The notes under the pieces are model-generated. The model did no database searches, had not been told where the DNA came from, and worked only from the letters and a program-made list of their open reading frames with translations. From positions 1,757 to 65,756 of the forward strand of contig JBEKKN010000008.1 in NCBI GenBank assembly GCA_050010675.1: a DNA stretch of 64,000 bases. Direction: 5' to 3'. The translations under genes and the position numbers were made by a program. Below, piece after piece: positions 4,396 to 55,948 of this stretch; within the stretch, counting starts at the first letter, position 1; the number at the start of each line of letters is the position of its first letter. The stretch is from Verrucomicrobiota bacterium (GTDB taxonomy: Bacteria; Verrucomicrobiota; Verrucomicrobiia; Limisphaerales; UBA11358).

Positions 4396-4450
4396 GCGGC
4401 GGTCTGTGACCGCCGCATTTCGTCGATTTGCGGCGCTCACCGAGCACCGC
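4396..4450. repeat. REP/BIME-like pair of GC-rich palindromes
   Basis: GCGGCGGTC-tgt-GACCGCCGC (4396-4416; 9-bp perfect stem) and GCGGCGCTC-acc-GAGCACCGC (4430-4450; 8/9) lie between the pyrD stop and ATG 4462. Confidence 0.7.
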
Positions 4451-4461
4451 TACAAGAAGTT

Positions 4462-4833
4462 ATGTTCGAGCATCGCTCAAAACCGTTGTTGCCGCGCCGG
4501 CAGTATTACGTGCGCCTGGCCCGAGGCGTGGGGATTGGCCTGATCGTCATCGCGTGCGCGCTCGGCATCGGAATGGTGGGTTACCGGACCTTCGAAGGCA
4601 TGTCCTGGGTGGACGCCTTCGTGAATGCGGCGATGATTTTGTCCGGCATGGGCCCGGTGTCATCACTGCAAACCAACGGCGGGAAAATTTTTGCCGGGTT
4701 CTACGCGCTGTTCAGCGGGTTGGCCTTCATCGCCATCCTCGGTATCATTTTTGCCCCGGTGTTCCACCGGTTCCTGCACCGGTTTCATGAGGACGAAGCG
4801 AAGCGCGCCGCCAAACCTCCGGACCAGCCCTGA
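4462..4833 (+). CDS. small integral membrane protein; layout loosely resembles a 2-TM pore; function unknown
   Basis: Starts MFEHRSKPLLPRRQYY. TM1 is GIGLIVIACALGIGMVGY, followed by a short re-entrant-like segment AAMILSGMGPV and TM2 FAGFYALFSGLAFIAILGIIFAPVF. The GTG 4384 extension in the track is encoded by the palindromic repeat, so I rejected it. Confidence 0.5.
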   Translation: MFEHRSKPLLPRRQYYVRLARGVGIGLIVIACALGIGMVGYRTFEGMSWVDAFVNAAMILSGMGPVSSLQTNGGKIFAGFYALFSGLAFIAILGIIFAPVFHRFLHRFHEDEAKRAAKPPDQP

Positions 4834-4839
4834 TTCTGT

Positions 4840-4868
4840 TTTGCGCTTCGCGGGCGGCGGGGTATGCT
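4840..4868 (+). promoter_or_regulatory. candidate promoter TTTGCG-N17-TATGCT, 6 nt upstream of ATG 4875
   Basis: Read directly. There is no Shine-Dalgarno sequence in the 6-nt gap. Confidence 0.35.
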
Positions 4869-4874
4869 GGATTC

Positions 4875-5732
4875 ATGTTGTGGGCATTCACCAAGTATCA
4901 CGGACTGGGCAACGACTACCTCGTCATTGACCCGAAGAACCTGCCGGCGCCGCTGACCGCCGCGCAGATCAAGACGATCTGCCATCGCAATTACGGCATC
5001 GGTTCGGACGGCATCCTGCTGGGACCGTTACCTTCCAAAAAAGCGAAGTTCGCGGTGCGCATTTTCAATCCCGACGGCAGCGAGGCGGAAAAAAGCGGCA
5101 ACGGCCTGCGGATTTTTTCGCGTTACCTGTGGGACAAAAAGCTGGTGGACAAGGACGAGTTTGCCGTCGAAACCGCCAGCGGCCTGGTGAAGGCCACGGT
5201 GACGGAGCGCGGCAAAATTGTCCGCGTCGAAATGGGCCGGGTCAGCTTCTGGAGCGATGAAATCCCCGTGGCGGGCCCGCGCCGGGAGGTCATCAACGAA
5301 CCCATCCACCTGCGCGGGGAACGATTCAACTTTTGCGCGGCGACGGTGGGCAATCCGCATTGCGTGCTGCCCATGGCCAAAATCAGCGCGGAACTGGCGA
5401 AACAAATCGGCCCGCTGTTGGAGACGCACCTGCGTTTTCCCAAGCGCACCAATGTGCAATTCATGAAGGTGATCGACCGTAACAACATCCAGATTGAAAT
5501 CTGGGAACGCGGCGCGGGTTACACGCTGGCCAGCGGCAGCAGCAGCAGCGCGGCGGCGGCGGTGGCCCACAAACTCGGCCTGTGCGATCGCGCCATCTCC
5601 GTGCACATGCCCGGCGGCATCATTGAAATCGAGATTGGCGACGATTATGCGATTCGCATGACCGGAGCGGTGACCAAGGTGGCCGATGGCGTGATCGCGA
5701 AGGAAATGTTCACCGCGCCCATCGCGGCCTGA
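4875..5732 (+). CDS. dapF: diaminopimelate epimerase
   Basis: FTKYHGLGNDYLVID...SGNGLRIF...GNPHCV...ERGAGYTLASGSS, covering the two catalytic Cys/Ser regions typical of DapF. Confidence 0.9.
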   Translation: MLWAFTKYHGLGNDYLVIDPKNLPAPLTAAQIKTICHRNYGIGSDGILLGPLPSKKAKFAVRIFNPDGSEAEKSGNGLRIFSRYLWDKKLVDKDEFAVETASGLVKATVTERGKIVRVEMGRVSFWSDEIPVAGPRREVINEPIHLRGERFNFCAATVGNPHCVLPMAKISAELAKQIGPLLETHLRFPKRTNVQFMKVIDRNNIQIEIWERGAGYTLASGSSSSAAAAVAHKLGLCDRAISVHMPGGIIEIEIGDDYAIRMTGAVTKVADGVIAKEMFTAPIAA

Positions 5733-7967: not shown

Positions 7968-8175
7968 AGCGTTTTAAATAAAGCGGTGGCCTGACTCGGA
8001 AACCCGATCGGAAAATTCCGCGAGGTTTTGGACTGCGGCAGTCCTCTGCCGCTTTGCGTTCGCCGGCCTTGCGGGAGAAATAGCGGCGGAGGGCTGCCGC
8101 AGTCCAAGACGCTGACGCGCCATCCGCTTAACTCAAGCCAGCTTGCCGGCTACAGTATTTTTGAAACTGCCGTGG
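7967..8175. mobile_element. MITE-like element, copy 1 (about 209 bp), imperfect terminal inverted repeats, flanked by TA
   Basis: About 90% (left 80 nt) and about 80% (right 66 nt) identical by hand to 28418-28562. Left end is GAGCGTTTTAAATA; the right end is degenerate. It has an internal 24-bp hairpin (8030-8053 with 8082-8105, 2 G-T pairs). TA occurs at 7965-66 and 8176-77. Confidence 0.65.
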
Positions 8176-43216: not shown

Positions 43217-44590
43217 ATGCCGCGCGATGATTTGTTTTCCGCCCCGGTGGACCGCCAGCCGGAACCAAAATCCCCGCCGGCGCCCGCAACCCTTTCCCGG
43301 AACCAGCCGCTCGCCGCGCGGATGCGTCCGCGCCACCTTGACGAATTCGCCGGCCAAACCCACATCCTTGCCCCCGGCCAGTTGCTGCGCCGGGCCATCG
43401 AGGCCGACCGGATTCAATCATTGATTTTTTTTGGGCCGCCCGGCACCGGCAAGACGTCGCTCGCCCAAATCATTGCGCACCAGACCAAAAGTAAATTCGA
43501 CCGCCTGAGCGGCGTGGAATCCAATGTGGCCGACATGCGCCGGGTTTTGGCCGCCGCGGCCAATCGCCTGGAAAACACCGGCCAGCCGACCATCCTGTTC
43601 ATTGACGAAATCCACCGCTTCAACAAGGCGCAACAGGATGTCCTGTTGCCGGACGTGGAAAGCGGCGTGGTGCGGCTCATCGGCGCGACAACGCATAATC
43701 CCTTTTTCTTCGTCAACTCGCCCCTGGTCTCGCGCTCGCAAATTTTTGAACTGCGCCCCTTGACCGAGCAGGACTTGTTTTCCCTGCTGCAGCGCGCCCT
43801 GGCCGACCCCGAACGCGGCCTGGGCTACCTGAAAATCCAGGCCGATGAAAACGCGCTGCGGCATCTGGCCAAAATGGCCGACGGCGACGCGCGCAAGGCG
43901 TTGAACGCACTGGAGATCGCCGCGCTCACGACCGCGTCGGATGAGAAGGGCGTGGTTCAGATCAACCTCGCCGCCGCCGAGCAAAGCATCCAGAAAAAGG
44001 CCGTGGTGTACGACGACGAAGACGCGCATTACGACACGATCTCCGCGTTCATCAAATCCATGCGCGGCAGCAATCCCGACGCCGCGTTGTACTGGCTGGC
44101 CAAGATGATTCATGCCGGTGAGGACCCGCGCTTCATTGCACGACGGATTGTGATCTGCGCCGCGGAAGATGTCGGCCTCGCTGATCCAATGGCGTTGGTG
44201 CTGGCCAACGCGGCGTTGTCGGCGTCGGAATTTGTCGGCTGGCCGGAGGCGCGCATCCCGCTGGCGGAGGCGACGATCTACATCGCCACCGCCAACAAAA
44301 GCAACAGCGCCTATCTGGCGATTGACGCCGCGCTGAAGGACGTGAAATCGGGCCGCACGCTGCCGGTGCCGGAGCATTTGCGCGACGCCAATTATAAAGG
44401 CGCGGAACGGCTGGGCCATGGCCAGGGCTACGAATATGCGCACGACCATCCGGACCATTTCGTGGCCCAGGATTATCTTGGGTCGGACGCGATTTATTAC
44501 CAGCCGACCGAACAGGGTGTGGAAAAGAAAATCAAGGAGCGCGTTGAAAAATGGCGTGCGCAATTCGCCAAATCAAAAAAACCAAAGTAA
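43217..44590 (+). CDS. rarA: replication-associated recombination protein A (AAA+ ATPase)
   Basis: PLAARMRP..LDEF.GQ.H....G..L........SLIFFGPPGTGKTSLA...LFIDEIHRFNK.QQD.LLP..E.G...LIGATT.NP; C-terminal MgsA domain. Confidence 0.95.
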   Translation: MPRDDLFSAPVDRQPEPKSPPAPATLSRNQPLAARMRPRHLDEFAGQTHILAPGQLLRRAIEADRIQSLIFFGPPGTGKTSLAQIIAHQTKSKFDRLSGVESNVADMRRVLAAAANRLENTGQPTILFIDEIHRFNKAQQDVLLPDVESGVVRLIGATTHNPFFFVNSPLVSRSQIFELRPLTEQDLFSLLQRALADPERGLGYLKIQADENALRHLAKMADGDARKALNALEIAALTTASDEKGVVQINLAAAEQSIQKKAVVYDDEDAHYDTISAFIKSMRGSNPDAALYWLAKMIHAGEDPRFIARRIVICAAEDVGLADPMALVLANAALSASEFVGWPEARIPLAEATIYIATANKSNSAYLAIDAALKDVKSGRTLPVPEHLRDANYKGAERLGHGQGYEYAHDHPDHFVAQDYLGSDAIYYQPTEQGVEKKIKERVEKWRAQFAKSKKPK

Positions 44591-44592
44591 AC

Positions 44593-44619
44593 CACGGATG
44601 GACACGGATAAACACGGAT
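44593..44619. repeat. three 10-nt-phased CACGGAT units (solo arm)
   Basis: CACGGAT at 44593, 44603 and 44613. The same unit builds the inverted repeats around the GxxExxY ORF at 51031-51468. It overlaps the first codons (MDTDKHGS) of the next gene. Confidence 0.75.
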
Positions 44620-45185
44620 CGGACCAAAAGAAAACAAAGCTGCGCTCTGATATCCGGAGGGTTCTGAAAAAATTATCGCCGGAACACCGGGCGGTGGATT
44701 CGTTGAAAATCCGCGCTTTACTATCGCAGCAACCCTTTTGGAAGGACGCTGCCGCGGTCCTGTTTTTCGCACCCTTGCCGGACGAAGTGGATGTCTGGCC
44801 GTTGCTGGCAGAGGCGCTGGCCGCCGGAAAAACTGCCGCTCTGCCCCGGTTTGATTCTGAAAACAACGATTACCTTGCCTGCCACGTGCAGAATCCGCAA
44901 ACCGAAGTTGGGCCCGGGCAATTCGGCATTCGCGAGCCAAAGAACGGTTGTCCTGAAATTCCACTGGAACGCCTGGGGTTGATCCTCGTACCCGGCGTTG
45001 CGTTTGACCTGCGCGGAGGCCGGCTGGGCCGGGGCCGGGGGTTTTACGATCGCTTGCTGGCCGGATTCCACGGGATCAAATGCGGTGTTGCCTGGGGCGA
45101 ACAAATGGTGGAGGAAGTGCCGACGGGAACACTCGATGTCCGCATGGATTTTGTTCTGACACCAACCCAATGTGTAGAAGTTTGA
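44598..45185 (+). CDS. 5-formyltetrahydrofolate cyclo-ligase
   Basis: KLRSDIRRVLKKLSPE...VLFFAPLPDEVD...PRF......Y......G.FGI.EP...LILVPGVAFDLRGGRLGRGRGFYDR. Start ATG 44598 (M61 of the track ORF). Confidence 0.85.
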   Translation: MDTDKHGSDQKKTKLRSDIRRVLKKLSPEHRAVDSLKIRALLSQQPFWKDAAAVLFFAPLPDEVDVWPLLAEALAAGKTAALPRFDSENNDYLACHVQNPQTEVGPGQFGIREPKNGCPEIPLERLGLILVPGVAFDLRGGRLGRGRGFYDRLLAGFHGIKCGVAWGEQMVEEVPTGTLDVRMDFVLTPTQCVEV

Positions 45186-45210
45186 CGCGGTGAGATGATT
45201 TCCCGCCACC

Positions 45211-45231
45211 GATCACTCGTCACTTGTCACA
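45211..45231. repeat. short heptamer array (GATCACT CGTCACT TGTCACA), same unit family as 16961-16988
   Basis: Read directly in the spacer after the 5-FCL stop. Confidence 0.55.
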
Positions 45232-45384
45232 TTATTGGTGCTGCTGATTGAGCATCGGCGAGTTGCCTTCCCAGCTTTGCGGAGAGTTCCAGGGACGAAC
45301 CGACGCATTGTCAGGTTCATTCGTTTCGCAACCAGTAACACCCAAAAGCAGGAAACCCAACAGAAGCAGTAAAAGCCATTTCAT
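45232..45384 (-). CDS. small lipoprotein (50 aa)
   Basis: MKWLLLLLLGFLLLGVTGC (lipobox LGVTGC). Starts 17 nt after the stop of the upstream coiled-coil gene. Confidence 0.5.
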   Translation of the reverse strand: MKWLLLLLLGFLLLGVTGCETNEPDNASVRPWNSPQSWEGNSPMLNQQHQ

Positions 45385-45400
45385 GGCTGGACCTCCCATT

Positions 45401-46168
45401 TCAAGAGGCGGGATGCGCCGGGGTGACCTCATCCCCTTCGATGACGTCTCCGAGCTGCCAACCCGGAACGATGTTGGCGATGCTGCGGTCCTTTTGAACA
45501 CTGCGAACAATGACCTTGGCCACGAGCTTGCCATCACGGCTCACGAGCATTTCCCCGTCATTCAACACGCCCTGGTCGCCACCTATGTTCAGCACCACAA
45601 AATTCCATTTGGGATCCACGGCGATGATCTGGCCTTTCAAGTCGGCGCGCAACGTGACGACATAATTGGTTCCGATCAATTCAGCCAGTTGGGTGCTCAA
45701 GCGATTGACCGTGCGTTGCAAAACCCCATTCTCCTCCTGGACGGCCGCCAGTTCGTTTTGGGTGAATTTAAGCGTCTTGTTCAAACTGCCCACCTGGTCC
45801 GGGTTCAGGCCGGTGGCTTTGAAGGCCGCCAGTTGATTCTGCGCGTCATCCCGTTCCTGACTGGTTTTGGCCAGTTTATCCGCCAGATCATCCGCGCGTT
45901 TTTGCTGGGTCGTGGCGGTGAGCACCGCGTTGGTGAGCTGCGTTTGGGTGTCGGCCAGTTGCTGCTGGGTCTGGCTTAAATCATCCTTGGTTTTGGCCAG
46001 CTCCTGCCGGGTGCTGGCCAGTTCGGTCCGGGCCTGGTCCCGTTCGGTGTGGAAGCCGTCGCGTTCGGTGATCAAGCCGTCAATCTTGTCCCTAATTTCA
46101 AAAACGTTCAGTGCGCCCGCGGCCAGGGCCGCGACAATCGCTACAATCAAGCTGATGCGAATCAACAT
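45401..46168 (-). CDS. membrane-anchored coiled-coil protein, function unknown
   Basis: N-terminal TM MLIRISLIVAIVAALAAGAL, a heptad-rich Q/E/L/T region of about 150 aa, and a C-terminal beta-rich domain. Confidence 0.6.
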   Translation of the reverse strand: MLIRISLIVAIVAALAAGALNVFEIRDKIDGLITERDGFHTERDQARTELASTRQELAKTKDDLSQTQQQLADTQTQLTNAVLTATTQQKRADDLADKLAKTSQERDDAQNQLAAFKATGLNPDQVGSLNKTLKFTQNELAAVQEENGVLQRTVNRLSTQLAELIGTNYVVTLRADLKGQIIAVDPKWNFVVLNIGGDQGVLNDGEMLVSRDGKLVAKVIVRSVQKDRSIANIVPGWQLGDVIEGDEVTPAHPAS

Positions 46169-46399
46169 GGATGGGTCACTTCAATTTTGCCAAAACTATA
46201 CGTTTGCGCCCGGAATGTCAACGCCGGTTTACATCTTGCCAAACATTGATTTCGTACCATCTTTAAGCATGGATCGGAAGCGGCCCTGGCGGTTGTCCGT
46301 CCCTCCGGATGCCGCACGCACCGGCGGTTGCTCCCAGCCGGGCAACGGGTTGCGGGAACCGGGACCGAAGCAAATCCGAACACCTGACCACGACCGGTT

Positions 46400-47626
46400 A
46401 TGCGATTAAATCACGGCCTGCATCTCGCCTACTGCACCAACATTCACCGCGGCGAGACGTGGCGCGAGACGTTTGCGTCGTTGGAAACCTACGCGCTCGC
46501 GGTGCGCGAACGGGTTTGCCCGAAACGGCCGTTTGCCATCGGCCTGCGCCTGAGCTACCGCGCCGCGCACGAATTGAGCGACCCCGGCACGCTGCTGGCG
46601 TTTCAACGCTGGCTCGTGCAAAAGGATTGTTACGTTTTTACAATCAATGGTTTTCCGTATGGCCAGTTTCACGGCACGCGGGTGAAGGAGCAGGTTTACC
46701 TGCCGGACTGGACCTCGCCGGAGCGGCTGGCCTATACCAACCTGCTGTTCGACCTGCTGGCCAAATTGCTGCCCGTCGGCGTCGAAGGCAGCGTCAGCAC
46801 CCTGCCCGGTTCCTTCAAAGGATTCCGGCTCAACGCCGATGCGCTGAAGGCAATCCGCCAGAACCTCTGGTATGGCATCGAGCACATCGCGCATCTGGCC
46901 GAACAGACGGGCCGTAAATTGCACCTCGGTCTGGAACCCGAGCCGCTGTGCCTGTTGGAAAGCAGTGCCGAAACCATCCATTTTTTTGACCGGTTGCGTA
47001 CCGAACATCCGCGGGATCCCCGTCTGGCCGAACATCTCGGCGTGAATTATGACACCTGTCACTTCGCCGTGAATTTTGAGGACCCCAAAAATGCCCTGGC
47101 CTGCCTGCATCATCACGGCATCAAAATCAGTAAAATCCACCTGAGCTCCGCGCTCAAAGTGCGGCCCACGGCGGCAGCCCGCCAGGCGCTCGCCACCTTT
47201 GCCGAGGACGTTTACCTCCATCAAGTCGTGGTCCGCGATCCGGCGGGGAACCGGAAAATCTATTACGACCTCCCCGACGCGCTGGCCGACCCGGAAGCCG
47301 GAGACCAGATGCCAGAGGCCGGAGGCCAGACCCCAGATGCCAGACCCGAGACGCCAGACGCCAGCCTGCCCGAATGGCGGATTCATTTTCATGTGCCGCT
47401 GCACGCGCCGGCCGTGCCGCCGCTCGACAACACCATCGACCACCTGCTCGGCGTGCTGGATTTACTGTCGGAAAATCCCCACCTCTGTTCCCATCTGGAA
47501 ATGGAGACCTACACCTGGGAAGTGCTGCCGCCGGAATTGAAAAGCCTCAGCGTGGTGGTACAACTCGCGGCGGAATACGCCTGGCTGCTCCCGCAACTGG
47601 CGGAACGCGGACTCGCCAACCGGTGA
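46400..47626 (+). CDS. eboE: xylose-isomerase-like TIM-barrel protein, EboE-like
   Basis: LHLAYCTNIHRGETW...PFAIGLRLS..AA.EL....L..F..WL......VFTINGFPYGQFHGTRVKEQVYLPDW...RL.YT..L...LA.LLP matches my memory of the EboE family. Contains a repeat-encoded insert (see 47291-47367). Confidence 0.6.
   Translation: MRLNHGLHLAYCTNIHRGETWRETFASLETYALAVRERVCPKRPFAIGLRLSYRAAHELSDPGTLLAFQRWLVQKDCYVFTINGFPYGQFHGTRVKEQVYLPDWTSPERLAYTNLLFDLLAKLLPVGVEGSVSTLPGSFKGFRLNADALKAIRQNLWYGIEHIAHLAEQTGRKLHLGLEPEPLCLLESSAETIHFFDRLRTEHPRDPRLAEHLGVNYDTCHFAVNFEDPKNALACLHHHGIKISKIHLSSALKVRPTAAARQALATFAEDVYLHQVVVRDPAGNRKIYYDLPDALADPEAGDQMPEAGGQTPDARPETPDASLPEWRIHFHVPLHAPAVPPLDNTIDHLLGVLDLLSENPHLCSHLEMETYTWEVLPPELKSLSVVVQLAAEYAWLLPQLAERGLANR
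47291..47367. repeat. tandem heptanucleotide array, about 11 units (CCRGANN), inside the eboE-like CDS
   Basis: CCGGAAG CCGGAGA CCAGATG CCAGAGG CCGGAGG CCAGACC CCAGATG CCAGACC CGAGACG CCAGACG CCAGCCT. Encodes PEAGDQMPEAGGQTPDARPETPDAS. Confidence 0.8.
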
Positions 47627-47648
47627 CTTTTCTGATTTGCTCCGCGCG

Positions 47649-48518
47649 ATGAACCGGGATTTTTTCCGTCGCCTTCGCACGCTGCTGATATTGGGGCGTG
47701 TCTCCAACCTGCCGACCGTCTGGTCTAATTGCCTGGCGGGCTGGTGGCTCGGTGGCGGCGAAAACTTTGCGAACCTGCCCTACCTGTTTTTTGGCGTCAG
47801 CGCGCTGTATGTCGGCGGCATGTATTTGAACGATGCGTTTGATGCGGATTTCGACCGCCAACACCGCCCGGAACGGCCGATTCCCTCCGGCGCGATTTCG
47901 CTGCCGGCGGTCTGGGGCTGGGGACTGGCGTGGCTGGGGCTGGGTGCGTTAAGCCTGATTTTTATCGGGAAAACCACGGGCGCGCTGGGGCTGGTGCTGA
48001 TTGCGTGCATCCTCCTTTATGACGCCACACACAAGGTCATCACCGCCTCGCCGTGGCTGATGGGGGCGTGCCGGTTCTGGATCTACGTCATTGCCGGCTC
48101 CGCCGCCGGCGGGGGTTTGAATGGCTGGCCGATCTGGTGCGGCGTGGCGCTGGCGGTTTACGTCGCCGGCCTGAGCCACATGGCGCGGCTGGAAAGTTCG
48201 CGCGCAACGATTCCCCGCTGGCCGTTCGCGCTGCTCGTCGCGCCGGTCTTCCTGGCCCTGCTGATGGATTCCGGCGATAACCGCGTTCCGGCCCTCTGGC
48301 TGTCGCTCATCCTGGTGCTGTGGATTGCGCGTTGCGTGCGCCCCATGTTTCAAGGAGGCCAGGTGAACGTGGGACGGATCGTTTCCGGCTTGCTCGCCGG
48401 AATCGTATTTGTGGACTGGCTGGCGGTCGCCCCGGGCGGTCCACCCGCGTTGAACGTGGTGTTTTTAATCCTGTTCGGCGCGACCCTGGGGTTGCAATGG
48501 TTCGTGCCAGCCACCTGA
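47649..48518 (+). CDS. UbiA-family prenyltransferase (EboC-like by context)
   Basis: NDAFDADFD (NDxxDxxxD) motif, about 8 TM segments, 22 nt downstream of the eboE-like gene. ATG 47649 (M5 of the track ORF). Confidence 0.75.
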   Translation: MNRDFFRRLRTLLILGRVSNLPTVWSNCLAGWWLGGGENFANLPYLFFGVSALYVGGMYLNDAFDADFDRQHRPERPIPSGAISLPAVWGWGLAWLGLGALSLIFIGKTTGALGLVLIACILLYDATHKVITASPWLMGACRFWIYVIAGSAAGGGLNGWPIWCGVALAVYVAGLSHMARLESSRATIPRWPFALLVAPVFLALLMDSGDNRVPALWLSLILVLWIARCVRPMFQGGQVNVGRIVSGLLAGIVFVDWLAVAPGGPPALNVVFLILFGATLGLQWFVPAT

Positions 48519-48541
48519 GACAGGGAAAAATTTGCTGTTTC

Positions 48542-48569
48542 AGCGTTTAGCCTTCAGCCTTTAGCCTTT
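48542..48569. repeat. tandem heptanucleotide array, 4 units (AGCGTTT AGCCTTC AGCCTTT AGCCTTT)
   Basis: Read directly in the spacer upstream of cysI. Confidence 0.7.
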
Positions 48570-48591
48570 CAAAAAGCTTCACAAGCCGCGC

Positions 48592-48620
48592 TTGAACCGG
48601 CAATCACCTTCGGTTATTCT
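48592..48620 (+). promoter_or_regulatory. candidate promoter TTGAAC-N17-TATTCT, 12 nt upstream of ATG 48633
   Basis: Read directly. Confidence 0.4.
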
Positions 48621-48632
48621 AGTGGTTCGTAT

Positions 48633-50297
48633 ATGAGTACCGAGGCTCCACGCGAGTTGACGCATAATGAAGAGATCAAGGAAGCGATTCCAACGCTCGC
48701 CGGCACCATCGCGTCCCGGCTGGCCGACCCGACCGCCGACTCGTTTTCGGGCGACGACAACCAGTTCCTCAAATTTCACGGCTGCTATCAACAGGACGAC
48801 CGCGATTTACGCTCGGGCGGCAAAAAATACATCATGATGATTCGCGGGCGGATTCCCGGCGGCGTGATGACCGCCAATCAGTGGTGCGTGTTCGACGAGC
48901 TCGCCTGGCTGTACGGCAACAACACGCTGCGCATCACGACCCGTCAGAGCATCCAGTTTCACGGCGTGGTGAAGGCGAACCTGCGCCTCGTGATCAAAAA
49001 AATCAACGAGTCACTGCTGTCCACGTTGTCTGCGTGCGGCGACGTGAACCGCAATGTTCTGGCCCCGCCGACGCCCGCCTACACCCAGGCACGCGATGAG
49101 GTCTATTGGGATTGCGTGCGGGTGGCGGATGCGCTCAAGCCGCAGACCCGCGCTTATTACGCCATCTGGATTGACGGCTACCAGCTCAAGATTGACGACC
49201 CGTTCAATCAAGCGTTCACCGACCCGCTTTACGGCAAAACTTATTTGCCGCGCAAATTCAAGGTCGCCTTTGCCATTCCACCGGTGAATGACCTGGACGT
49301 TTTCACCAACTGCCTCGGCTTCATTGCCATTGTGGAAAATGACCGGCTCATCGGCTACAACGTCACGGTCGGCGGCGGCATGGGTCGCACGCACGGAAAC
49401 CAGGAAACGTATCCGCGTCTGGCGAGCGAACTTGGTTTTTTGACGCCGGACAAATTGATTGATGTCGCCAAAGCCGTGCTGAGGATTCACCGCGATTTTG
49501 GCGATCGCACCGACCGCAAGCATGCGCGGTTCAAATATGTTGTCGAGGAACGCGGCGTGGATTGGACGCGCGCCGAAGTTGAGAAACGCGCCGGGGTCAA
49601 ATTCGCGCCGGCCAGGCCTTATAAATTCACAACCACCGCCGATTTGCTCGGCTGGCACAAGGCCGTGGACGGGAAAAACTTTTTCACCCTGTTCGTCGAA
49701 ACCGGCCGCGTGAAAAAAGAGAAAAAAATCGCGCTGCGCGAAATCGCGGAGACGTTTCCGCAAATCGAATTCCGCCTGACCACGAATCAAAATGTGATTC
49801 TGGCCAAGGTCGGGGAAAACGAGCAGGCGGGAATCAATTCCATTTTTGCGGCGCACGGAATTCCCGTGGAAAACCAGGCGAGCGTGCTGCATGCCGCCGC
49901 CATGGCGTGCCCCGCCATGCCCACTTGCGGTCTGGCCCTCGCCGAGAGCGAACGCATGTTGCCCGGACTCATTGACCGCATCGAAAAACTTTGCGGTGAT
50001 CTCGGATTGGGCGACGAGGAAATCATCATCCGCTCAACCGGTTGCCCGAACGGGTGCGCGCGTCCGTACATGGCGGAGATCGCGTTCGTCGGCAAGGCGC
50101 CCGGGCGTTATCAGCTCTGGCTCGGTGGCAACGTTTCCGGCACACGGCTCAACCGCGTGTGGAAGGAAACGGTCAAGGATCCGGACATTGAAAATGAACT
50201 GCGTCCGGTGCTCGCGCGTTACGCGAAGGAACGCCACCCCGGCGAACGCTTCGGCGACTGGTGCGACCGCGTCTTTCTAAACGAGAAGATGAATTAA
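48633..50297 (+). CDS. cysI: assimilatory sulfite reductase hemoprotein (sirohaem/4Fe-4S)
   Basis: FHGCYQQDDRD...; Cys cluster ACPAMPTCGLA...STGCPNGCARPY. Confidence 0.9.
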   Translation: MSTEAPRELTHNEEIKEAIPTLAGTIASRLADPTADSFSGDDNQFLKFHGCYQQDDRDLRSGGKKYIMMIRGRIPGGVMTANQWCVFDELAWLYGNNTLRITTRQSIQFHGVVKANLRLVIKKINESLLSTLSACGDVNRNVLAPPTPAYTQARDEVYWDCVRVADALKPQTRAYYAIWIDGYQLKIDDPFNQAFTDPLYGKTYLPRKFKVAFAIPPVNDLDVFTNCLGFIAIVENDRLIGYNVTVGGGMGRTHGNQETYPRLASELGFLTPDKLIDVAKAVLRIHRDFGDRTDRKHARFKYVVEERGVDWTRAEVEKRAGVKFAPARPYKFTTTADLLGWHKAVDGKNFFTLFVETGRVKKEKKIALREIAETFPQIEFRLTTNQNVILAKVGENEQAGINSIFAAHGIPVENQASVLHAAAMACPAMPTCGLALAESERMLPGLIDRIEKLCGDLGLGDEEIIIRSTGCPNGCARPYMAEIAFVGKAPGRYQLWLGGNVSGTRLNRVWKETVKDPDIENELRPVLARYAKERHPGERFGDWCDRVFLNEKMN

Positions 50298-50350
50298 CCA
50301 CCGGGAATCGAGGCACCCAGATTTCCCGCCGGGCAGCTTTGTTATTTCAA

Positions 50351-51013
50351 ATGACCTCCGATCAAATCATCAAAGCCAACGCCGGGTTGCGTGACCAATC
50401 GCCGCTCGAAATCGTCCGCTGGGCCGTCCAGCAGGCGAACGGGCGCGCCATTGTCTCGACGAATTTTCGGCCCTACGAAGCGGTGATTCTGCACCTGTGC
50501 GTGCAGGTGCAACCGGACATGCCGGTGCTGTGGGTGGACCACGGTTACAACCGGCCGGCAACCTACCAGCACGCGGAGGAGCTGAAGCATCAGCTCAAGT
50601 TGAATTTAAAGCCGTATCTGCCAAAAATTTCCGCGGCCCATCGCGACGCGATTTATGGCGGGATTCCGTCCACCGCTGACGAAGCCGGTTTGAAGCAATT
50701 CAGCGCCTTGATGAAGCTGGAGCCGTTCCAGCGCGGCATGAAGGAGCTGGCGCCAACGGTCTGGATCACCGCCCTGCGCAAGGTGCAAAATCCGAACCGC
50801 GCCGGGCTCGACATTGTTTCCGAGGACAAGAATTTTGGCGCACTGAAGGTCAGTCCGGTTTTCTATTGGAGCGATGCGGACATGGAGACCTACCTGAAGC
50901 AGCACCAGTTGCCGAACGAATGGGATTATTTTGATCCGGCGAAGGCCGACGACAAACGCGAGTGCGGCCTGCACGCGACCTGGGGTTCGCAAACGCTGGG
51001 CTCCGGCATCTAA
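50351..51013 (+). CDS. cysH: phosphoadenosine phosphosulfate reductase family protein
   Basis: SPLEIVRWA......IVSTNFRPYEAVILHL...; C-terminal KRECGLH motif. Start ATG 50351 (M31 of the track ORF). Confidence 0.85.
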   Translation: MTSDQIIKANAGLRDQSPLEIVRWAVQQANGRAIVSTNFRPYEAVILHLCVQVQPDMPVLWVDHGYNRPATYQHAEELKHQLKLNLKPYLPKISAAHRDAIYGGIPSTADEAGLKQFSALMKLEPFQRGMKELAPTVWITALRKVQNPNRAGLDIVSEDKNFGALKVSPVFYWSDADMETYLKQHQLPNEWDYFDPAKADDKRECGLHATWGSQTLGSGI

Positions 51014-51030
51014 AACAAAGACACAGGCCT

Positions 51031-51059
51031 GGACACGGATTACACGGATTTTCACGAAT
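51031..51059. repeat. left inverted-repeat arm of the GxxExxY module (CACGGAT x2 plus CACGAAT)
   Basis: 24/29 complementary (by hand) to 51440-51468. Confidence 0.75.
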
Positions 51060-51065
51060 TTTTTC

Positions 51066-51440
51066 ATGAGTGAACTGCTCTATCGCGAAGAGACGCGCCG
51101 GTTGATTGGCTTTTGCATGGAGATTCACCGCGAACTGGGCAAAGGACATGACGAAGTTATCTATAAGGACGCGTTGGTCGTGGAATTGAGCCGGGAGAAA
51201 ATTCCTTTCGCCCGCGAGAACAAATACGAAGTGAAATACAAAGGTGTGGTTCTTCCACATTCTTATCGCGCTGACTTCGTGGTCTCGGACAAAATTTTGT
51301 TCGAGGCAAAGGCAGTTGAGCAACTGACCGACGCGCACATCAAGCAGGTCTTAAACTATCTGGCCGCCTCGAAACTTCGACTGGGATTGCTTGTTAATTT
51401 CGGCGCGGATTCGCTAGAATGGAAGCGCGTCATTTTATGA
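51066..51440 (+). CDS. GxxExxY-family protein (PD-(D/E)XK-like small protein)
   Basis: MSELLYREETRRLIGFCMEIHRELGKGHDEVIYKDAL..EL......F..E....V.YKG...ADF.V...I..E.KAV. GHDEVIY is the GxxExxY motif. Confidence 0.8.
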   Translation: MSELLYREETRRLIGFCMEIHRELGKGHDEVIYKDALVVELSREKIPFARENKYEVKYKGVVLPHSYRADFVVSDKILFEAKAVEQLTDAHIKQVLNYLAASKLRLGLLVNFGADSLEWKRVIL

Positions 51441-51468
51441 ATCCGTGTCAATCCGTGAAATCAGTGTC
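51440..51468. repeat. right inverted-repeat arm of the GxxExxY module (ATCCGTG x2 plus ATCAGTG)
   Basis: Complement of 51031-51059. Ends 3 nt before the cysD ATG. Confidence 0.75.
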
Positions 51469-51471
51469 AAA

Positions 51472-52374
51472 ATGAACAGCTATCACCTGGACCATTTGCA
51501 GTACCTGGAAACGGAAGCGATCCACATCATGCGTGAGGTGGCGGCGGAATTTGAGCACCCGGCCCTGCTGTTCTCCGGTGGCAAGGATTCCATCTGCCTG
51601 CTGCGGCTGGCCGAAAAGGCGTTTCGTCCGTCGGACATTCCCATGCCGCTGCTCAACATTGACACCGGACATCATTTTCCCGAGCTGAATGAATTCCGTG
51701 ACCGGCGCGCCGGCGAGCTGGGCGCGAAGCTCATCGTCCGCAGGGTCGAGGACGCCATCACCAAGGGCATTGCCACGCCGAGGTCCGGTGAAATCAGCCG
51801 CAATCAGCTGCAGATTCCCACCCTGCTGGCGGCGATTGAGGAATTTCGCTTTGATTGCCTGATTGGCGGCGCGCGGCGCGACGAGGAAAAGGCCCGCGCC
51901 AAGGAACGGTTTTTCAGCTTCCGCGACGGTTTCGGCCAGTGGGACCCCAAAAACCAGCGGCCCGAAATCTGGAACCTGTACAACGCCCGCGTCAATCCTG
52001 GCGAACACATGCGCGTTTTCCCGTTGAGCAATTGGACGGAAATGGACGTGTGGGAATATATCAAACAGGAAAAACTTCAGGTGCCGACGATTTATTTCAG
52101 CCACACCCGAAAGTGCGTCCGCCGCAACGGCCAGTGGCTGCCCCTCACCGATCTGCTGCCAGCCAGGGACAAGGAGCCGGTGAAGGAACTGGTCGTGCGC
52201 GTCCGCACCATCGGTGACATCATCAGCACCGGCATGGTCGAGTCGCCGGCTGACTCCGTGGACGACATCCTTGCCGAAATCGCCGCCGCGCGCGTGACCG
52301 AGCGGGGCTCCCGCGCCGACGACAAGGCAAGCGAAGCGGCGATGGAAGACCGCAAGAAAGCCGGATATTTTTAA
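51472..52374 (+). CDS. cysD: sulfate adenylyltransferase subunit 2
   Basis: LDHLQYLETEAIHIMREVAAEFE.PALLFSGGKDS (PP-loop)...RVFPLSNWTE.DVW.YI. Confidence 0.95.
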   Translation: MNSYHLDHLQYLETEAIHIMREVAAEFEHPALLFSGGKDSICLLRLAEKAFRPSDIPMPLLNIDTGHHFPELNEFRDRRAGELGAKLIVRRVEDAITKGIATPRSGEISRNQLQIPTLLAAIEEFRFDCLIGGARRDEEKARAKERFFSFRDGFGQWDPKNQRPEIWNLYNARVNPGEHMRVFPLSNWTEMDVWEYIKQEKLQVPTIYFSHTRKCVRRNGQWLPLTDLLPARDKEPVKELVVRVRTIGDIISTGMVESPADSVDDILAEIAAARVTERGSRADDKASEAAMEDRKKAGYF

Positions 52375-52376
52375 TC

Positions 52377-52404
52377 GGAGATGGGAGTTCGAAGATGGAA
52401 GATC
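52377..52404. repeat. left heptamer-array arm of the four-helix-bundle module (GGAGATG GGAGTTC GAAGATG GAAGATC)
   Basis: The 13-nt core GGAGATGGGAGTT is perfectly complementary to 52794-52806. Starts 3 nt after the cysD stop. Confidence 0.8.
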
Positions 52405-52781
52405 GGAAAAACATGGCAACCCCAAAGACATTTGAAGATTTAGACGCTTGGAAGTCCGCACGCGATTTAACCAACGAAGCTTATCGTCTTGCGCGCCGCG
52501 AGCCAATGTCGCGGGTTTTTGGCCTTTGCGACCAGTTCAGACGTGCGGCGCTTTCAGTGATGAACAATATCGCTGAAGGTTGGGAAAGTCTTCATGTGGC
52601 GGAAAAAAAACAGTTTTACAATTGGTCACGCCGTTCCTGCGGAGAAGTCCGGTCCATGAGTTACGTCCTGCTCGACAACTTATTCATTACCTCCGAAGAG
52701 CAACAAGCCTTGCTAAAACTTTGCATTCGTGCTGGCAAACTCGTAAGCGGCCTGATTCGCTCGCTGGACAATCGCAACTAA
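52395..52781 (+). CDS. four-helix-bundle protein (23S rRNA intervening-sequence protein family)
   Basis: ...TFEDLDAWKSARDLTNEAYRL...CDQFRRAALSVMNNIAEGW......K.QFYNWSRRSCGEV, typical of this family. Alternative start at ATG 52413. Confidence 0.8.
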   Translation: MEDRKNMATPKTFEDLDAWKSARDLTNEAYRLARREPMSRVFGLCDQFRRAALSVMNNIAEGWESLHVAEKKQFYNWSRRSCGEVRSMSYVLLDNLFITSEEQQALLKLCIRAGKLVSGLIRSLDNRN

Positions 52782-52785
52782 ACCC

Positions 52786-52813
52786 AATCTCCAAACTCCC
52801 ATCTCCTATCTCC
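52786..52813. repeat. right heptamer-array arm of the four-helix-bundle module (AATCTCC AAACTCC CATCTCC TATCTCC)
   Basis: Inverse complement of 52377-52404. Ends 7 nt before the cysN ATG. Confidence 0.8.
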
Positions 52814-52820
52814 CGAGAAA

Positions 52821-54140
52821 ATGCCCCACACTCAACATCCCGTCGAAATCCTGCGCCTGAACACCTGTGGTTCGGTGGATGACGGCAAGTCCACGCTCAT
52901 TGGCCGGCTGCTTTACGATTCCAAAAATTTGATGGAGGACCAGCTGGAGGCGCTGGAACGTTCCGCCGACATCACGGGCGGCGGCCAGATCAACCTGGCG
53001 AACCTCACCGACGGTCTCCGCGCCGAGCGCGAACAGGGCATCACGATTGACGTGGCCTACCGTTATTTTGCCACGCCCAAGCGGAAGTTCATCGTCGCCG
53101 ACACGCCCGGCCACGTCCAATACACGCGCAACATGGTCACCGGCGCCTCGACCGCGAATCTGGCCATCGTGTTGGTGGATGCACGGCAGGGTGTGATCGA
53201 GCAAAGCCGCCGCCATACCTACATCGCCGCGCTCCTTGGCATTCCCCACCTCATCATCGCGGTGAACAAAATGGACCTGGTGGATTGGAGCGAGGACCGT
53301 TATTGGGAAATCCGCGATGAGTTCGAGGGTTTCCTGCCCAAACTGGACGTCTTTCGCGACGTGAAATTCATCCCCATCAGCGCGCTCAATGGCGACAACG
53401 TCGTGGACGCCTCGAAACACACGCCGTGGTTTGAAGGTCCCACGCTGCTCGCGCATCTCGAAAATGTCCATATCGCCAGCGACTGGAACCTGAACACCCT
53501 CCGGTTCCCGGTGCAATGGGTGAATCGTCCGAACACTCCGACCGACCCGAAGCTGCACGATTTCCGCGGCTTGAGCGGCCAGATCGCCAGCGGCATTGTG
53601 CGCAAAGGCCAGTCGGTGGTGGTGCTGCCCGCCGGCATCCGGACAACAATAAAGGACATCTGGACCTACGACGGCCCGCTGGCGGAGGCCTTTTGCCCGC
53701 AATCGGTGACGCTCTGCCTCGAACATGACATCGATGTCAGCCGCGGCGACATGATTGTGGGTCTGGAAAATCTGCCGGGTCAAAGCTCCGAATTGCACGC
53801 GCACGTCTGCTGGATGCACCAGCGGCCGCTGCAAGCCGGCAGGAAGTTTTTTCTCAAACACACCACGCAAACCGTGCAGGCCGTGGTTACCAAACTGGAA
53901 AGCCGCATCGACATGGCCACGTTCGAGCCGGAACCGGAACCGCCGGCGCTGGGCATCAACGACATCGGGGTTATTCGCCTGAAAATCTCCAAGCCCCTTG
54001 TGTATGACGGTTACAACACCAACCGGCTGACCGGCTCCTTCATTTTGATTGAGCAAGGCACGAACGCGACCGCCGCCGCCGGCATGTTGTCGCCACCCAC
54101 CGAACCCGTGAAGCCGGAGTACACCGATTTCGCGATTTGA
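52821..54140 (+). CDS. cysN: sulfate adenylyltransferase subunit 1 (GTPase; no APS-kinase domain)
   Basis: LRLNTCGSVDDGKSTLIGRLL (G1)...DTPGH...NKMD. Confidence 0.95.
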   Translation: MPHTQHPVEILRLNTCGSVDDGKSTLIGRLLYDSKNLMEDQLEALERSADITGGGQINLANLTDGLRAEREQGITIDVAYRYFATPKRKFIVADTPGHVQYTRNMVTGASTANLAIVLVDARQGVIEQSRRHTYIAALLGIPHLIIAVNKMDLVDWSEDRYWEIRDEFEGFLPKLDVFRDVKFIPISALNGDNVVDASKHTPWFEGPTLLAHLENVHIASDWNLNTLRFPVQWVNRPNTPTDPKLHDFRGLSGQIASGIVRKGQSVVVLPAGIRTTIKDIWTYDGPLAEAFCPQSVTLCLEHDIDVSRGDMIVGLENLPGQSSELHAHVCWMHQRPLQAGRKFFLKHTTQTVQAVVTKLESRIDMATFEPEPEPPALGINDIGVIRLKISKPLVYDGYNTNRLTGSFILIEQGTNATAAAGMLSPPTEPVKPEYTDFAI

Positions 54141-54307
54141 GTTCCGTTCAACGGCAAGGCAATGCTTGGGACGAACCGCCTGCGTGAACCGGGGATATGC
54201 CGGCAATATGTCCATCCCGGGAACCGACCCGCCAACGGAAAAGTTGAATTCAAAAAAACTTTGGATGCAAACCCGGGAATGATAGCTTCTGAAACCATTC
54301 ATCTTTT

Positions 54308-55948
54308 ATGATAAAAAAATCAAATTCATTCCGGCCGTCGCAAATCCTGGTAATCATGATGGTGGCCATGGCCGGCGCCGGTCTTCGGCCCGGACTTTCG
54401 GCGGCGGCGGAAGCATCGAATGACAACGGGTCAGGCGCGCGCGATCGGATCATCGCGGTGGATGTGAACCAAATCCAGGGGCCGCTGGACACGTCCTTCA
54501 AAGTCTGCGTCGGGGCCGGTCGCGCCAACGAGGGGCTGCGGGCGGACTGGCAGGAGCAGTTGCGCGTGGCGCGGCGCGAATGCGGCTTCCGATACATCCG
54601 CATGCACGGACTGCTCACGGATGACATGGGCGTTTACAAGGAGGACGCGCACGGCAACCCCATGTACAACTGGCAATACATCGACCGGCTTTACGATTTC
54701 CTCTTGAGCATAAACGTCAAACCCTTTGTCGAGCTTTCGTTCATGCCCAAGGATCTGGCCAGTGGCAGCCGGACCATTTTCTGGTGGAAGGGCAACGTCA
54801 CGCCGCCAAAATCGTATGACAAGTGGGCCGACCTGATCCGCCATCTGGCCGCCCACTTTCAGGAGCGCTACGGGCATGACGAGGTGAAAACCTGGTACTT
54901 TGAAGTTTGGAATGAACCCGATTTGCATGATGGTTTCTTTACCGGCACGCAGGAGGATTATTTCAAGCTGTATGCCGTCACGGCCAGGGCCATCAAAAGC
55001 GTCTCGTCGGATTATCGCGTGGGCGGTCCGGCCACGGCGATAGGCCAGTGGGACAAATCGTTTATTGATTTTTGTCACACCAACAACGTGCCGCTCGACT
55101 TCGTGTCCAGCCATGCTTATGGCGTCAGGAGTGGATATTTGGATGAAACCGGCCAACGCGGAACGGTAATTGATTCCGATCCCAATTCGGTCATTGGCCG
55201 GATGGTCGGCGAACGCAGGATGATTGACCAATCACCGACGCCCGGCCTGCCGTTGCATTTCACCGAGTGGAGTTCGGCCTACACGCCCACCGACTTCATG
55301 CACGACACCTACCAGCAGGCCGCGTTCATCCTGAGCAAGGTCAAAGGCGCCTATCAGTCCGTGGACTCGATGTCCTACTGGACGTTCACCGATATTTTCG
55401 AGGAGAACGGGCCACGGATGACTCCGTTCCACGGCGGTTTCGGGCTGATCAATTACGAGGATTTGAAAAAACCCGCGTTCTACGCGTTCAAGTTCCTGAA
55501 CGAACTGGGCGAGTCCGAACTTAACAATACCGATCCAGCTTCCTGGGCATGCATAAACCCGGACCATTCCGTCCAGGCGCTTTTTTGGAATTACACGCCC
55601 ATCGTCCCATCGGCGGGAGAAAACGACCAGCAGTTCTATCAACGGGAGATTCCGGCCAAGGAAAACGGCCGGGTCCAGCTGTGCATCACCAACCTGCCTG
55701 CCGGAAGTTATACCCTGGAGATTTACCAGACCGGCTACCGCGCCAACGATGTCTTCACGGGTTATCTGGATCTCGGGTCACCCTCGCAATTGACGCCGGC
55801 CCAGGTCGGGATTCTGCGCGAGCAAAGCAGCGGATCTCCGCAAACCGTCGAGACCATCCAGATTGAAGACGGCAAACCATTTGTCCGGACCTTCCCCATG
55901 CGGCAGAACGACGTCTATTTCGTCAAATTTCTGCCCGAGAAGTCATGA
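54308..55948 (+). CDS. secreted glycoside hydrolase family 39 (beta-xylosidase-like)
   Basis: FRYIRMHGLLTDDMGVY...FEVWNEPDL (acid/base)...LHFTEWSS (nucleophile). Confidence 0.8.
   Translation: MIKKSNSFRPSQILVIMMVAMAGAGLRPGLSAAAEASNDNGSGARDRIIAVDVNQIQGPLDTSFKVCVGAGRANEGLRADWQEQLRVARRECGFRYIRMHGLLTDDMGVYKEDAHGNPMYNWQYIDRLYDFLLSINVKPFVELSFMPKDLASGSRTIFWWKGNVTPPKSYDKWADLIRHLAAHFQERYGHDEVKTWYFEVWNEPDLHDGFFTGTQEDYFKLYAVTARAIKSVSSDYRVGGPATAIGQWDKSFIDFCHTNNVPLDFVSSHAYGVRSGYLDETGQRGTVIDSDPNSVIGRMVGERRMIDQSPTPGLPLHFTEWSSAYTPTDFMHDTYQQAAFILSKVKGAYQSVDSMSYWTFTDIFEENGPRMTPFHGGFGLINYEDLKKPAFYAFKFLNELGESELNNTDPASWACINPDHSVQALFWNYTPIVPSAGENDQQFYQREIPAKENGRVQLCITNLPAGSYTLEIYQTGYRANDVFTGYLDLGSPSQLTPAQVGILREQSSGSPQTVETIQIEDGKPFVRTFPMRQNDVYFVKFLPEKS

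Follow-up and report, generated by a model that had tools for sequence, protein, structure and literature searches.

How do two small genes, each enclosed by inverted arrays of short repeats, come to fill two successive junctions of a sulfate-assimilation operon, and what might the arrays be doing there? The question is raised by the cysI-cysH-cysD-cysN operon of a Verrucomicrobiota bacterium, contained in a 64,000-nucleotide stretch of contig JBEKKN010000008.1 (assembly GCA_050010675.1, positions 1,757 to 65,756 of the forward strand), the whole of which we refer to as the window. The cysH|cysD junction (gap 1) holds module i, which carries a gene for a GxxExxY protein, and the cysD|cysN junction (gap 2) holds module ii, which carries a gene for a four-helix-bundle (FHB) protein. 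As argued below, the modules are very probably inserted cassettes of the type best known as the intervening sequences (IVSs) of 23S rRNA, and we put the probability of the explanation as a whole, in which such cassettes live in the junctions of an mRNA operon and their arms act there, at roughly 0.6. Their insertion, their long residence, and selection upon both the open reading frame (ORF) and the flanking arms are strongly supported where they are not directly shown. The contig, 431 kb long, derives from a peat or soil metagenome (Joint Genome Institute, JGI), and near-identical DNA is found in many peat metagenomes.

The modules and their terminal arrays

A first-pass annotation, made from the letters of the window alone, had described the cys genes as co-directional and both downstream gaps as filled by inverted-repeat-bounded small-ORF modules. 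Gene calls and hidden Markov models (HMMs) agree that cysI, cysH, the GxxExxY gene, cysD, the FHB gene and cysN run in one direction, and the features of the locus are as follows.

48633-50297, + strand: cysI (gene call)
50351-51013, + strand: cysH (PAPS/APS reductase), the host gene upstream of module i (NF002537, PF01507)
51020-51027, + strand: degenerate extra unit GACACAGG between the cysH stop and the left arm (read from the sequence)
51032-51060, + strand: module i left arm, GACACGGATT-A-CACGGATT-TT-CACGAATT, three units at 9-10-nt phase
51066-51440, + strand: GxxExxY protein gene, 124 aa, PD-(D/E)XK superfamily (TIGR04256, PF13366)
51440-51468, + strand: module i right arm, AATCCGTG-TC-AATCCGTG-AA-ATCAGTGTC
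51472-52374, + strand: cysD (sulfate adenylyltransferase small subunit; NF003587, 428 bits)
52374-52406, + strand: module ii left arm, heptamers GGAGATG GGAGTTC GAAGATG GAAGATC, from the cysD stop
52395-52781, + strand: FHB gene (23S rRNA IVS protein/S23p/Avd-like), 128 aa; alternative start at 52413
52784-52813, + strand: module ii right arm, a pyrimidine-rich heptamer array containing AACTCCCATCTCC
52821-54140, + strand: cysN (sulfate adenylyltransferase large subunit; TIGR02034, 546 bits)

The fit of each module to its gap is close: module i leaves 18 nt behind the cysH stop and 3 nt ahead of the cysD ATG, and module ii leaves 0 nt behind the cysD stop and 7 nt ahead of the cysN ATG. Both proposed family assignments hold. 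The ORF of module i matches TIGR04256 at 138 bits (cutoff 35, 1.7e-40) and PF13366 (PDDEXK_3) at 125 bits (cutoff 22, 2.5e-36) over residues 8-123, and in an alignment of 26 GxxExxY sequences both the motif (G27/E30/Y33) and the triad D...(D/E)xK (D70/E80/K82) are invariant. A sequence search for a solved GxxExxY homologue found none, and the AlphaFold model, built from a shallow alignment of 26 close homologues, has a pLDDT of only 40.6. Searches of PADLOC and PHROGs gave no defence-system assignment, and yielded only a weak Cas4b core similarity of the GxxExxY protein and a marginal PHROG match. The ORF of module ii matches TIGR02436 at 86.1 bits (cutoff 24, 1.7e-24) and PF05635 at 94.6 bits (cutoff 33.8, 5.2e-27), and residues 2-108 of its product match by sequence the PDB entry 2GSC (XCC0516, a five-chain four-helix-bundle pentamer) at E = 2.9e-10.

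The arms of module i are 29 nt long and complementary at 24 of 29 positions, as had been counted by hand, and the right arm overlaps the TGA stop of the GxxExxY gene. The units were less uniform than first described: CACGGAT is exact at 51034 and 51043, and ATCCGTG at 51441 and 51451, and the third units are one-mismatch variants (CACGAAT at 51053, ATCAGTG at 51460). For module ii the perfect 13-nt core is exact (GGAGATGGGAGTT at 52377, AACTCCCATCTCC at 52794). The four 7-nt units of its left arm span 52377-52404; they are overlapped by the longest reading of the ORF (ATG at 52395) and lie upstream of the ATG at 52413.

The significance of the arms was judged against 2000 dinucleotide shuffles of the module flanks, in which the inverted-repeat score was reached once for module i and never for module ii. 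The arm-arm duplexes are calculated at -33.6 (module i) and -32.7 kcal/mol (module ii) against -19.7 +/- 3.4 for shuffles, a difference of about 4 standard deviations, and the terminal stem is closed in the minimum-free-energy folds of both modules. In relatives, too, the ORFs come with flanking repeats, such that inverted arrays are general to both families: the mean best terminal inverted-repeat score is 15.7 against 6.6 in shuffles for 80 GxxExxY loci (73-94% identity), and 14.2 against 7.0 for 49 FHB loci. The shuffle tests on the modules and on both families rule out a chance origin of the arms. The GxxExxY units keep the 9-10-nt phase and their type tracks the subclade of the protein (CACGGATT, CACGAATT, (A/G)CGCGAATT), and the FHB units in relatives are heptamers, for example GGAGATS/GAAGATS, GGGGTCT/GGCGTCT or CGCAGTT.

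Insertion, age and turnover

Relative loci (given L numbers) were collected by seeding with cysD in species-representative genomes and metagenomes, and further loci were found via both small proteins; the window CysD is 86-94% identical to the CysD of uncultured Verrucomicrobiia. Among 57 non-redundant CysD-seeded loci, gap 1 is occupied by GxxExxY in 4 and by FHB in 6, measures 60 nt or less (short) in 22 and 61-300 nt (mid-size) in 21; for gap 2 the counts are 7 with FHB, 26 short and 9 mid-size. The empty junctions of close relatives, for which the first-pass annotation had advised a search, are typically 1-20 nt long or consist of an ATGA overlap, and that of L087, whose CysD is 94% identical to the window's, reads tatttttaaTTCTatg. 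Compared with the empty, coupled junctions of such relatives, the two 440-nt fillings of the window are most readily understood as insertions. The same peat communities also hold an allele with an empty gap 2 (52376 joined to 52830, with CCATGCCAAAT between the sides) and an allele of module i in which the arms are joined without the ORF (51059 joined to 51438).

Between the filled and the empty state lies a series of others. In gap 1 of L007 the GxxExxY cassette is internally deleted with both arms kept, and in gap 1 of L089 and L120 it is FHB cassettes that are internally deleted. Mid-size gaps are mostly cassette derivatives, many of them ORF-less palindromes of like build with units of CACGGAT, CACAGAT, CGCAGAT, CACGAAT, CGCTAAT, GTTAAAT, GTTACAT or GGGTCTG; these often start at the upstream stop, as in TTT-TAA-CCACGGAT...ATCCGTGGTTGAA, and in some short gaps a single arm remains. 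One cassette may also stand where another is found elsewhere, for an FHB gene takes the place of the GxxExxY gene in gap 1 of the closest relative, L087, and in five lineages whose host genes are 84-93% identical to those of the window, the gap-2 FHB shares only 50-53% identity with the window copy. All 82 of the ORF occupants of cys gaps are co-directional with the operon. It is reasonable to postulate that a small promoterless gene between two inverted tandem-unit arrays was inserted long ago at a tight, translationally coupled junction. As the series of states shows, such cassettes decay to ORF-less palindromes or half arrays and are sometimes replaced by another member of the family.

The age of the cassettes can be estimated from their substitutions (pS and pN by the method of Nei and Gojobori, against the window) in 37 loci with GxxExxY beside cysD, which is gap 1 wherever cysH is present. 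The GxxExxY genes show pS of 0.34-0.98 where cysH and cysD show 0.33-0.79; their pN/pS, at about 0.1-0.2, is like that of the host genes, and the gap-2 FHB orthologues (79-91% identity) behave alike in divergence and selection. As the cassettes match their host genes in pS and have low pN/pS, they would appear to have travelled with the operon for long, with their proteins under purifying selection; recent horizontal transfer of GxxExxY is ruled out by the agreement of its pS with that of cysH and cysD. Judged by these rates, the cassettes are old residents and not recent invaders. Of the earlier description of the modules as insertional (selfish), the first word is borne out by the empty junctions of relatives, and the second is doubtful in view of the host-like pS, the purifying selection and the conserved arms.

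Other occupants of the cys gaps were also seen. A hairpin family (TGTAGGGCGGG...CCCGCCCTACA and GGTAGGGCGCG...) is present in L011 (3353-3500), L027 (3367-3500) and gap 2 of both L291 and L302, and in L291 it sits nested within a CACGAAT palindrome's loop. Three lineages (L008 at 4404-5133, and L374 and L091 with about 370 nt) have gap 2 filled by a conserved ORF of some 121 aa (MKTPSKGKTFLFHWEK...); this ORF has neither a Pfam match nor inverted arrays at its flanks, and in L008 a 120-aa membrane-like ORF precedes it. Locus L003 (6175-7053), of the same species as the window, has two ORFs in gap 2 instead of FHB, one Bro-N-like of 158 aa and one of 78 aa, and was set aside as an allele with alternative cargo since its contig, with a duplicated cysI-cysH and a broken cysD, looks chimeric. 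Farther afield, an Opitutaceae metagenome-assembled genome (MAG; L033, 4407-4896, CysD 63%) has a cysD|cysN FHB gene (PF05635, 1.6e-28, with a bAvd-like match) between CAGGGGACAGGAGAC arrays, and a Bacteroidetes MAG (L032, 4407-4954) has a cysD|cysN GxxExxY gene, 30% identical to the window's, with TCGAGGCCAC arms.

Pairing, transcripts and competing explanations

The anatomy of the arms suggests that they are probably functional and paired. Among 30 orthologous cysH|gxx|cysD modules it is common for the left arm to begin inside the cysH stop (TAG-ACACGGATT); the GxxExxY TGA overlaps the right arm (TGA-ATCCGTG), which stops 3-4 nt short of the cysD ATG. The unit positions of these modules are 80-100% conserved despite a pS of about 0.5, and the spacers of the left arm are variable. 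Across 38 distinct modules, 7 of the 29 arm columns show two or more types of Watson-Crick pair and hardly any intermediates; at column 4, for instance, there are 27 A-T pairs, 11 G-C pairs and not one non-pair. Spacer columns are mismatched in 20-33 of the 38. Together, the pairing and the conserved spacer mismatches would have the arms form three 8-9-bp helices with interruptions of 1-2 nt.

In the mechanism that we favour, the cassette would be transcribed within the cys mRNA and its arms would pair into these helices, looping the cassette out such that the upstream stop and the downstream start are brought together. The helix may also serve as a substrate of RNase III, as the homologous Coxiella 23S IVS would suggest; cutting of this kind would allow the insertion to be tolerated, and the cys operon may thereby be split into separate mRNAs. 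Cleavage by RNase III in the cys operon itself, for which the argument is one of analogy, is a tentative proposal to which we would give somewhat less than even odds. The action as insulators that the first-pass annotation also suggested for the stems is likewise a conjecture.

Perfect-match RNA contigs from four metatranscriptomes lie inside the ORFs of both modules (51162-51367 over GxxExxY; 52660-52817 and 52679-52834 over the 3' part of FHB and the right arm), and show, as low-depth contigs that possibly contain DNA, that both modules are transcribed. Three contigs from three samples start inside the right arm of module i, at 51444, 51455 and 51462, and extend some 200-240 nt into cysD (to 51692), the rest of which is barely covered. 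These starts are compatible with a processed or an initiated 5' end in module i, and the contigs of module ii with the presence of some uncut RNA. Counts of sites resembling a promoter or terminator of the modules' own were at chance, and a promoter-like site at 51391-51420, upstream of the RNA starts, was rejected since it lies in conserved coding sequence whose synonymous sites are not conserved, and occurs at chance frequency.

Several observations weigh against regarding the modules as IVS-type cassettes of an mRNA. The RNA data consist of short assembled metatranscriptome contigs of low depth, which may contain DNA, and one of them (52679-52834) crosses the right arm of module ii uncut into cysN. 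A search of Rfam over 44000-54500 gave no match at E <= 1 and no rRNA match, and neither an insertion mechanism nor a target-site duplication nor a transposase came to light for the cassettes. Mismatches in the sense-strand arms show no excess of G.U over A.C (63 against 61 for GxxExxY, 50 against 75 for FHB), and the three units all make the A/G switch at position 4 at once, a pattern better explained by protein recognition or repeat homogenisation than by independent covariation of RNA pairs. Last, a function for the host could also account for the purifying selection and the site fidelity. From the concerted switch and the absent G.U excess we argue that the sequence of the unit is read, and not merely paired; the strict conservation of the units, all six copies of which change in concert, would likewise have a protein read them as well, possibly the product of the cassette itself or a factor of the host. 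The CACGGAU unit may resemble the binding sequence of CsrA/RsmA, whose consensus we take to be (A/U)CANGGANG(U/A); the sense-RNA left arms would presumably offer three such sites, though in a stem and not in loops.

A protein that reads the units as DNA is central to the foremost rival, a system like that of REPINs and RAYTs (doublets of repetitive extragenic palindromic, or REP, sequences and their REP-associated tyrosine transposases). The GxxExxY nuclease would bind the phased units as a duplex or extruded hairpin and would create, move or maintain ORF-less arrays, its own gene being vertical, domesticated and flanked by the repeats that it recognises, and the pairing in RNA incidental. Much of what speaks for it lies outside the cys operon. 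The pattern CACGGAT-N2-4-CACGGAT-N2-4-CACGGAT, which we estimate to occur by chance about twice in 596 Gb, was found at no fewer than 120 loci. Among the matches listed, the hosts are Verrucomicrobiota, Planctomycetota, Acidobacteriota, several proteobacterial classes, Bacteroidota, Leptospirales and others; most loci are convergent array pairs, mostly ORF-less palindromes, with a GxxExxY ORF at 6/120 and an FHB ORF at 0/120; the loops fall into two size classes (9-176 nt, or about 378-521 nt with an ORF); and the spacers of paired arrays are complementary at 54% of positions, compared to 25% by chance. The tracking of the GxxExxY subclade by unit type (CACGGATT, CACGAATT or ACGCGAATT), the concerted change of the six units, the missing RNA wobble signature, the invariant catalytic D...ExK residues and the vertical descent of a gene under purifying selection, as for RAYTs, would all suit such a system. 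Against it, FHB cassettes share the architecture without a nuclease fold, such that the cargo need not be the mobilising enzyme; there are several GxxExxY paralogues per genome, unlike the single-copy RAYTs; and no identical multicopy palindromes occur within the window. We regard this rival as possible but unlikely. The cross-phylum CACGGAT palindromes, of which we found no mention in the searchable literature, may themselves be an undescribed repeat family.

The window offers little more of this kind, as none of its other junctions holds such a module, and a role of the modules as genome-wide filler is ruled out as far as the window extends. The sole further trace is one half array:

44591-44619, + strand: half element ACCACGGATGGACACGGATAAACACGGAT, with no partner arm and no ORF, right after a rarA/mgsA-like stop

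This half element overlaps the called start of the 5-formyltetrahydrofolate cyclo-ligase gene and is shaped like the left ends of the ORF-less palindromes of relatives. A palindrome of another kind lies at 8025-8110 (GTTTTGGACTGCGGCAGTCCTCTGCCGCT..., with 29-nt arms 90% complementary and a 28-nt loop); it is REP-like in look and is not made of short phased units. In an uncultured deltaproteobacterium MAG (L193, 1013-1768), six ORF-less CACGGAT palindromes stand in tandem with a period of about 131 nt and two alternating loop variants.

Less probable still is a function for the host, in which the small proteins would be working members of sulfate assimilation (regulators or RNA-binding accessory factors, for example) and the arms cis-regulatory sites setting the translation or stability of cysH, cysD and cysN. 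The fidelity of the cassettes to the operon would suit such a function, as 40 of 40 FHB relatives of at least 56% identity, from 185,579 species genomes, sit in a cys gap, and the sublineages keep to their own (nearest neighbour in the same gap for 48 of 49; mean between-gap identity 61%); the purifying selection, as strong as that on host genes, and the nearly invariant right arm beside the cysD ATG point the same way. However, some 80% of related operons have no ORF in a given gap, their junctions being coupled, and GxxExxY and FHB substitute for one another in gap 1. Furthermore, both families are multicopy and found in rRNA, and very similar GxxExxY cassettes occupy unrelated junctions: a subclade about 80% identical to the window's lies in some 20 MAGs (L307, L317, L321, L325 and others; at about 1440-1990) between a leuA-like gene (HMGL-like and LeuA_dimer) and a leuS-like class-I tRNA synthetase gene with a leucyl editing domain, with arms built of ACGCGAATT units, and further copies are found after nuoH and between purC and an xerC-like integrase. 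With these on the other side of the balance, we consider a host function distinctly improbable.

Slightly weaker again is a free-standing homing endonuclease, by which GxxExxY would cut empty cysH|cysD junctions in related cells and the cassette would be copied in by recombinational repair, staying intact and site-specific, for although a nuclease-fold ORF patchily present between highly conserved genes, filled and empty alleles in one community, and some GxxExxY genes more conserved than their host genes (L291, 92% against 73-78%) would suit it, the pS of GxxExxY tracks that of the flanking genes in 37 comparisons with no sign of recent transfer, and the terminal arrays, the ORF-less palindromes and the nuclease-free FHB cassettes are left unexplained.

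Comparison with known systems

The likeness of module i to REPINs and RAYTs lies in a repeat that flanks a gene as inverted copies and is also found as ORF-less palindromic doublets, and both modules share with them a vertically inherited gene under purifying selection and a place in the intergenic parts of operons. The flanked gene is of the PD-(D/E)XK (or FHB) type, however, and not a Y1/HUH transposase, and the arms are arrays of 7-10-nt units, whose sequence is shared across phyla, in contrast to the single REP hairpin. The Correia elements of Neisseria and the enterobacterial repetitive intergenic consensus (ERIC) sequences are short elements bounded by terminal inverted repeats that lie between the genes of operons, and their transcribed hairpins can be targets of RNase III or RNase E. 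Unlike these repeats, which resemble miniature inverted-repeat transposable elements, the cassettes lack a target-site duplication, are not near-identical within a genome, are old and site-faithful, and in some cases carry an ORF; as for hallmarks of such elements, no direct repeats flank the arms in the window or in relatives, and no transposase lies near the modules. Eukaryotic foldback (FB) transposons have long inverted termini made of tandem short subrepeats, with most copies non-coding and a few carrying ORFs in the loop. They belong to another domain of life, differ in size and have no known homology to the cassettes, and the analogy is one of form only.

The searchable literature gave no description of either cassette design in operon junctions; PF13366 is listed as of function unknown, and ORFs of PF05635 are also found in rRNA insertions of bacteria of the candidate phyla radiation (CPR). 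The nature and origin of IVSs and the role of the S23p/Avd-like ORF have been open since about 1990 (PMC4990558), and TIGR02436 and TIGR04256 are abundant families. As such, the cys locus is of value in presenting the IVS architecture outside rRNA, in a biosynthetic operon, with empty, filled, gutted, halved and replaced states among relatives and with selection plainly acting on the ORF and the repeat units alike. It also raises questions that can be tested: whether RNase III cuts the arm duplex, whether the duplex preserves the coupling of cysH to cysD and of cysD to cysN, and whether the small proteins bind their own phased units.

In the widest terms, IVSs could be the best-known face of a widespread prokaryotic class of foldback type, comprising palindromes of phased 7-10-nt units that are usually ORF-less, that sometimes carry a GxxExxY or Avd-like FHB gene, that settle precisely at the stop/start junctions of conserved operons and also in rRNA helices, and whose units are read by a cargo protein acting on its own arms as DNA or RNA. 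This generalisation is speculative, and we would not expect it to hold in full.

The closest comparison is with the 23S IVSs themselves, as in Coxiella burnetii and Leptospira (PF05635/S23p), which like the modules are about 430 nt long with a stem of terminal inverted repeats, and which have an FHB ORF in the loop as in module ii. The Coxiella IVS measures 428 nt and encodes S23p, with GACAGAT heptamers repeated 3-4 times before the ORF in a number that varies by strain; the 5' cut by RNase III falls at the first repeat, and the element was gained horizontally and then kept vertically (PMC4990558). The parallel to IVSs drawn in the first-pass annotation is upheld in this detail, as tandem heptamers before an FHB-family ORF are the design of module ii. 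The differences are no less instructive. The modules lie in spacers of an mRNA operon (cysH|cysD, cysD|cysN) and not in helix 25 or 45 of rRNA; the FHB ORF here is under purifying selection, whereas that of Coxiella is decaying; the RNase III cut has been seen in Coxiella, and the modules are known from their sequence and from low-depth RNA contigs; and a second, unrelated cargo, GxxExxY, uses the same layout with units at 9-10 nt. On the evidence of these sequences, module ii agrees with the IVS design in every feature but its host site, and module i appears as a parallel design with another cargo.

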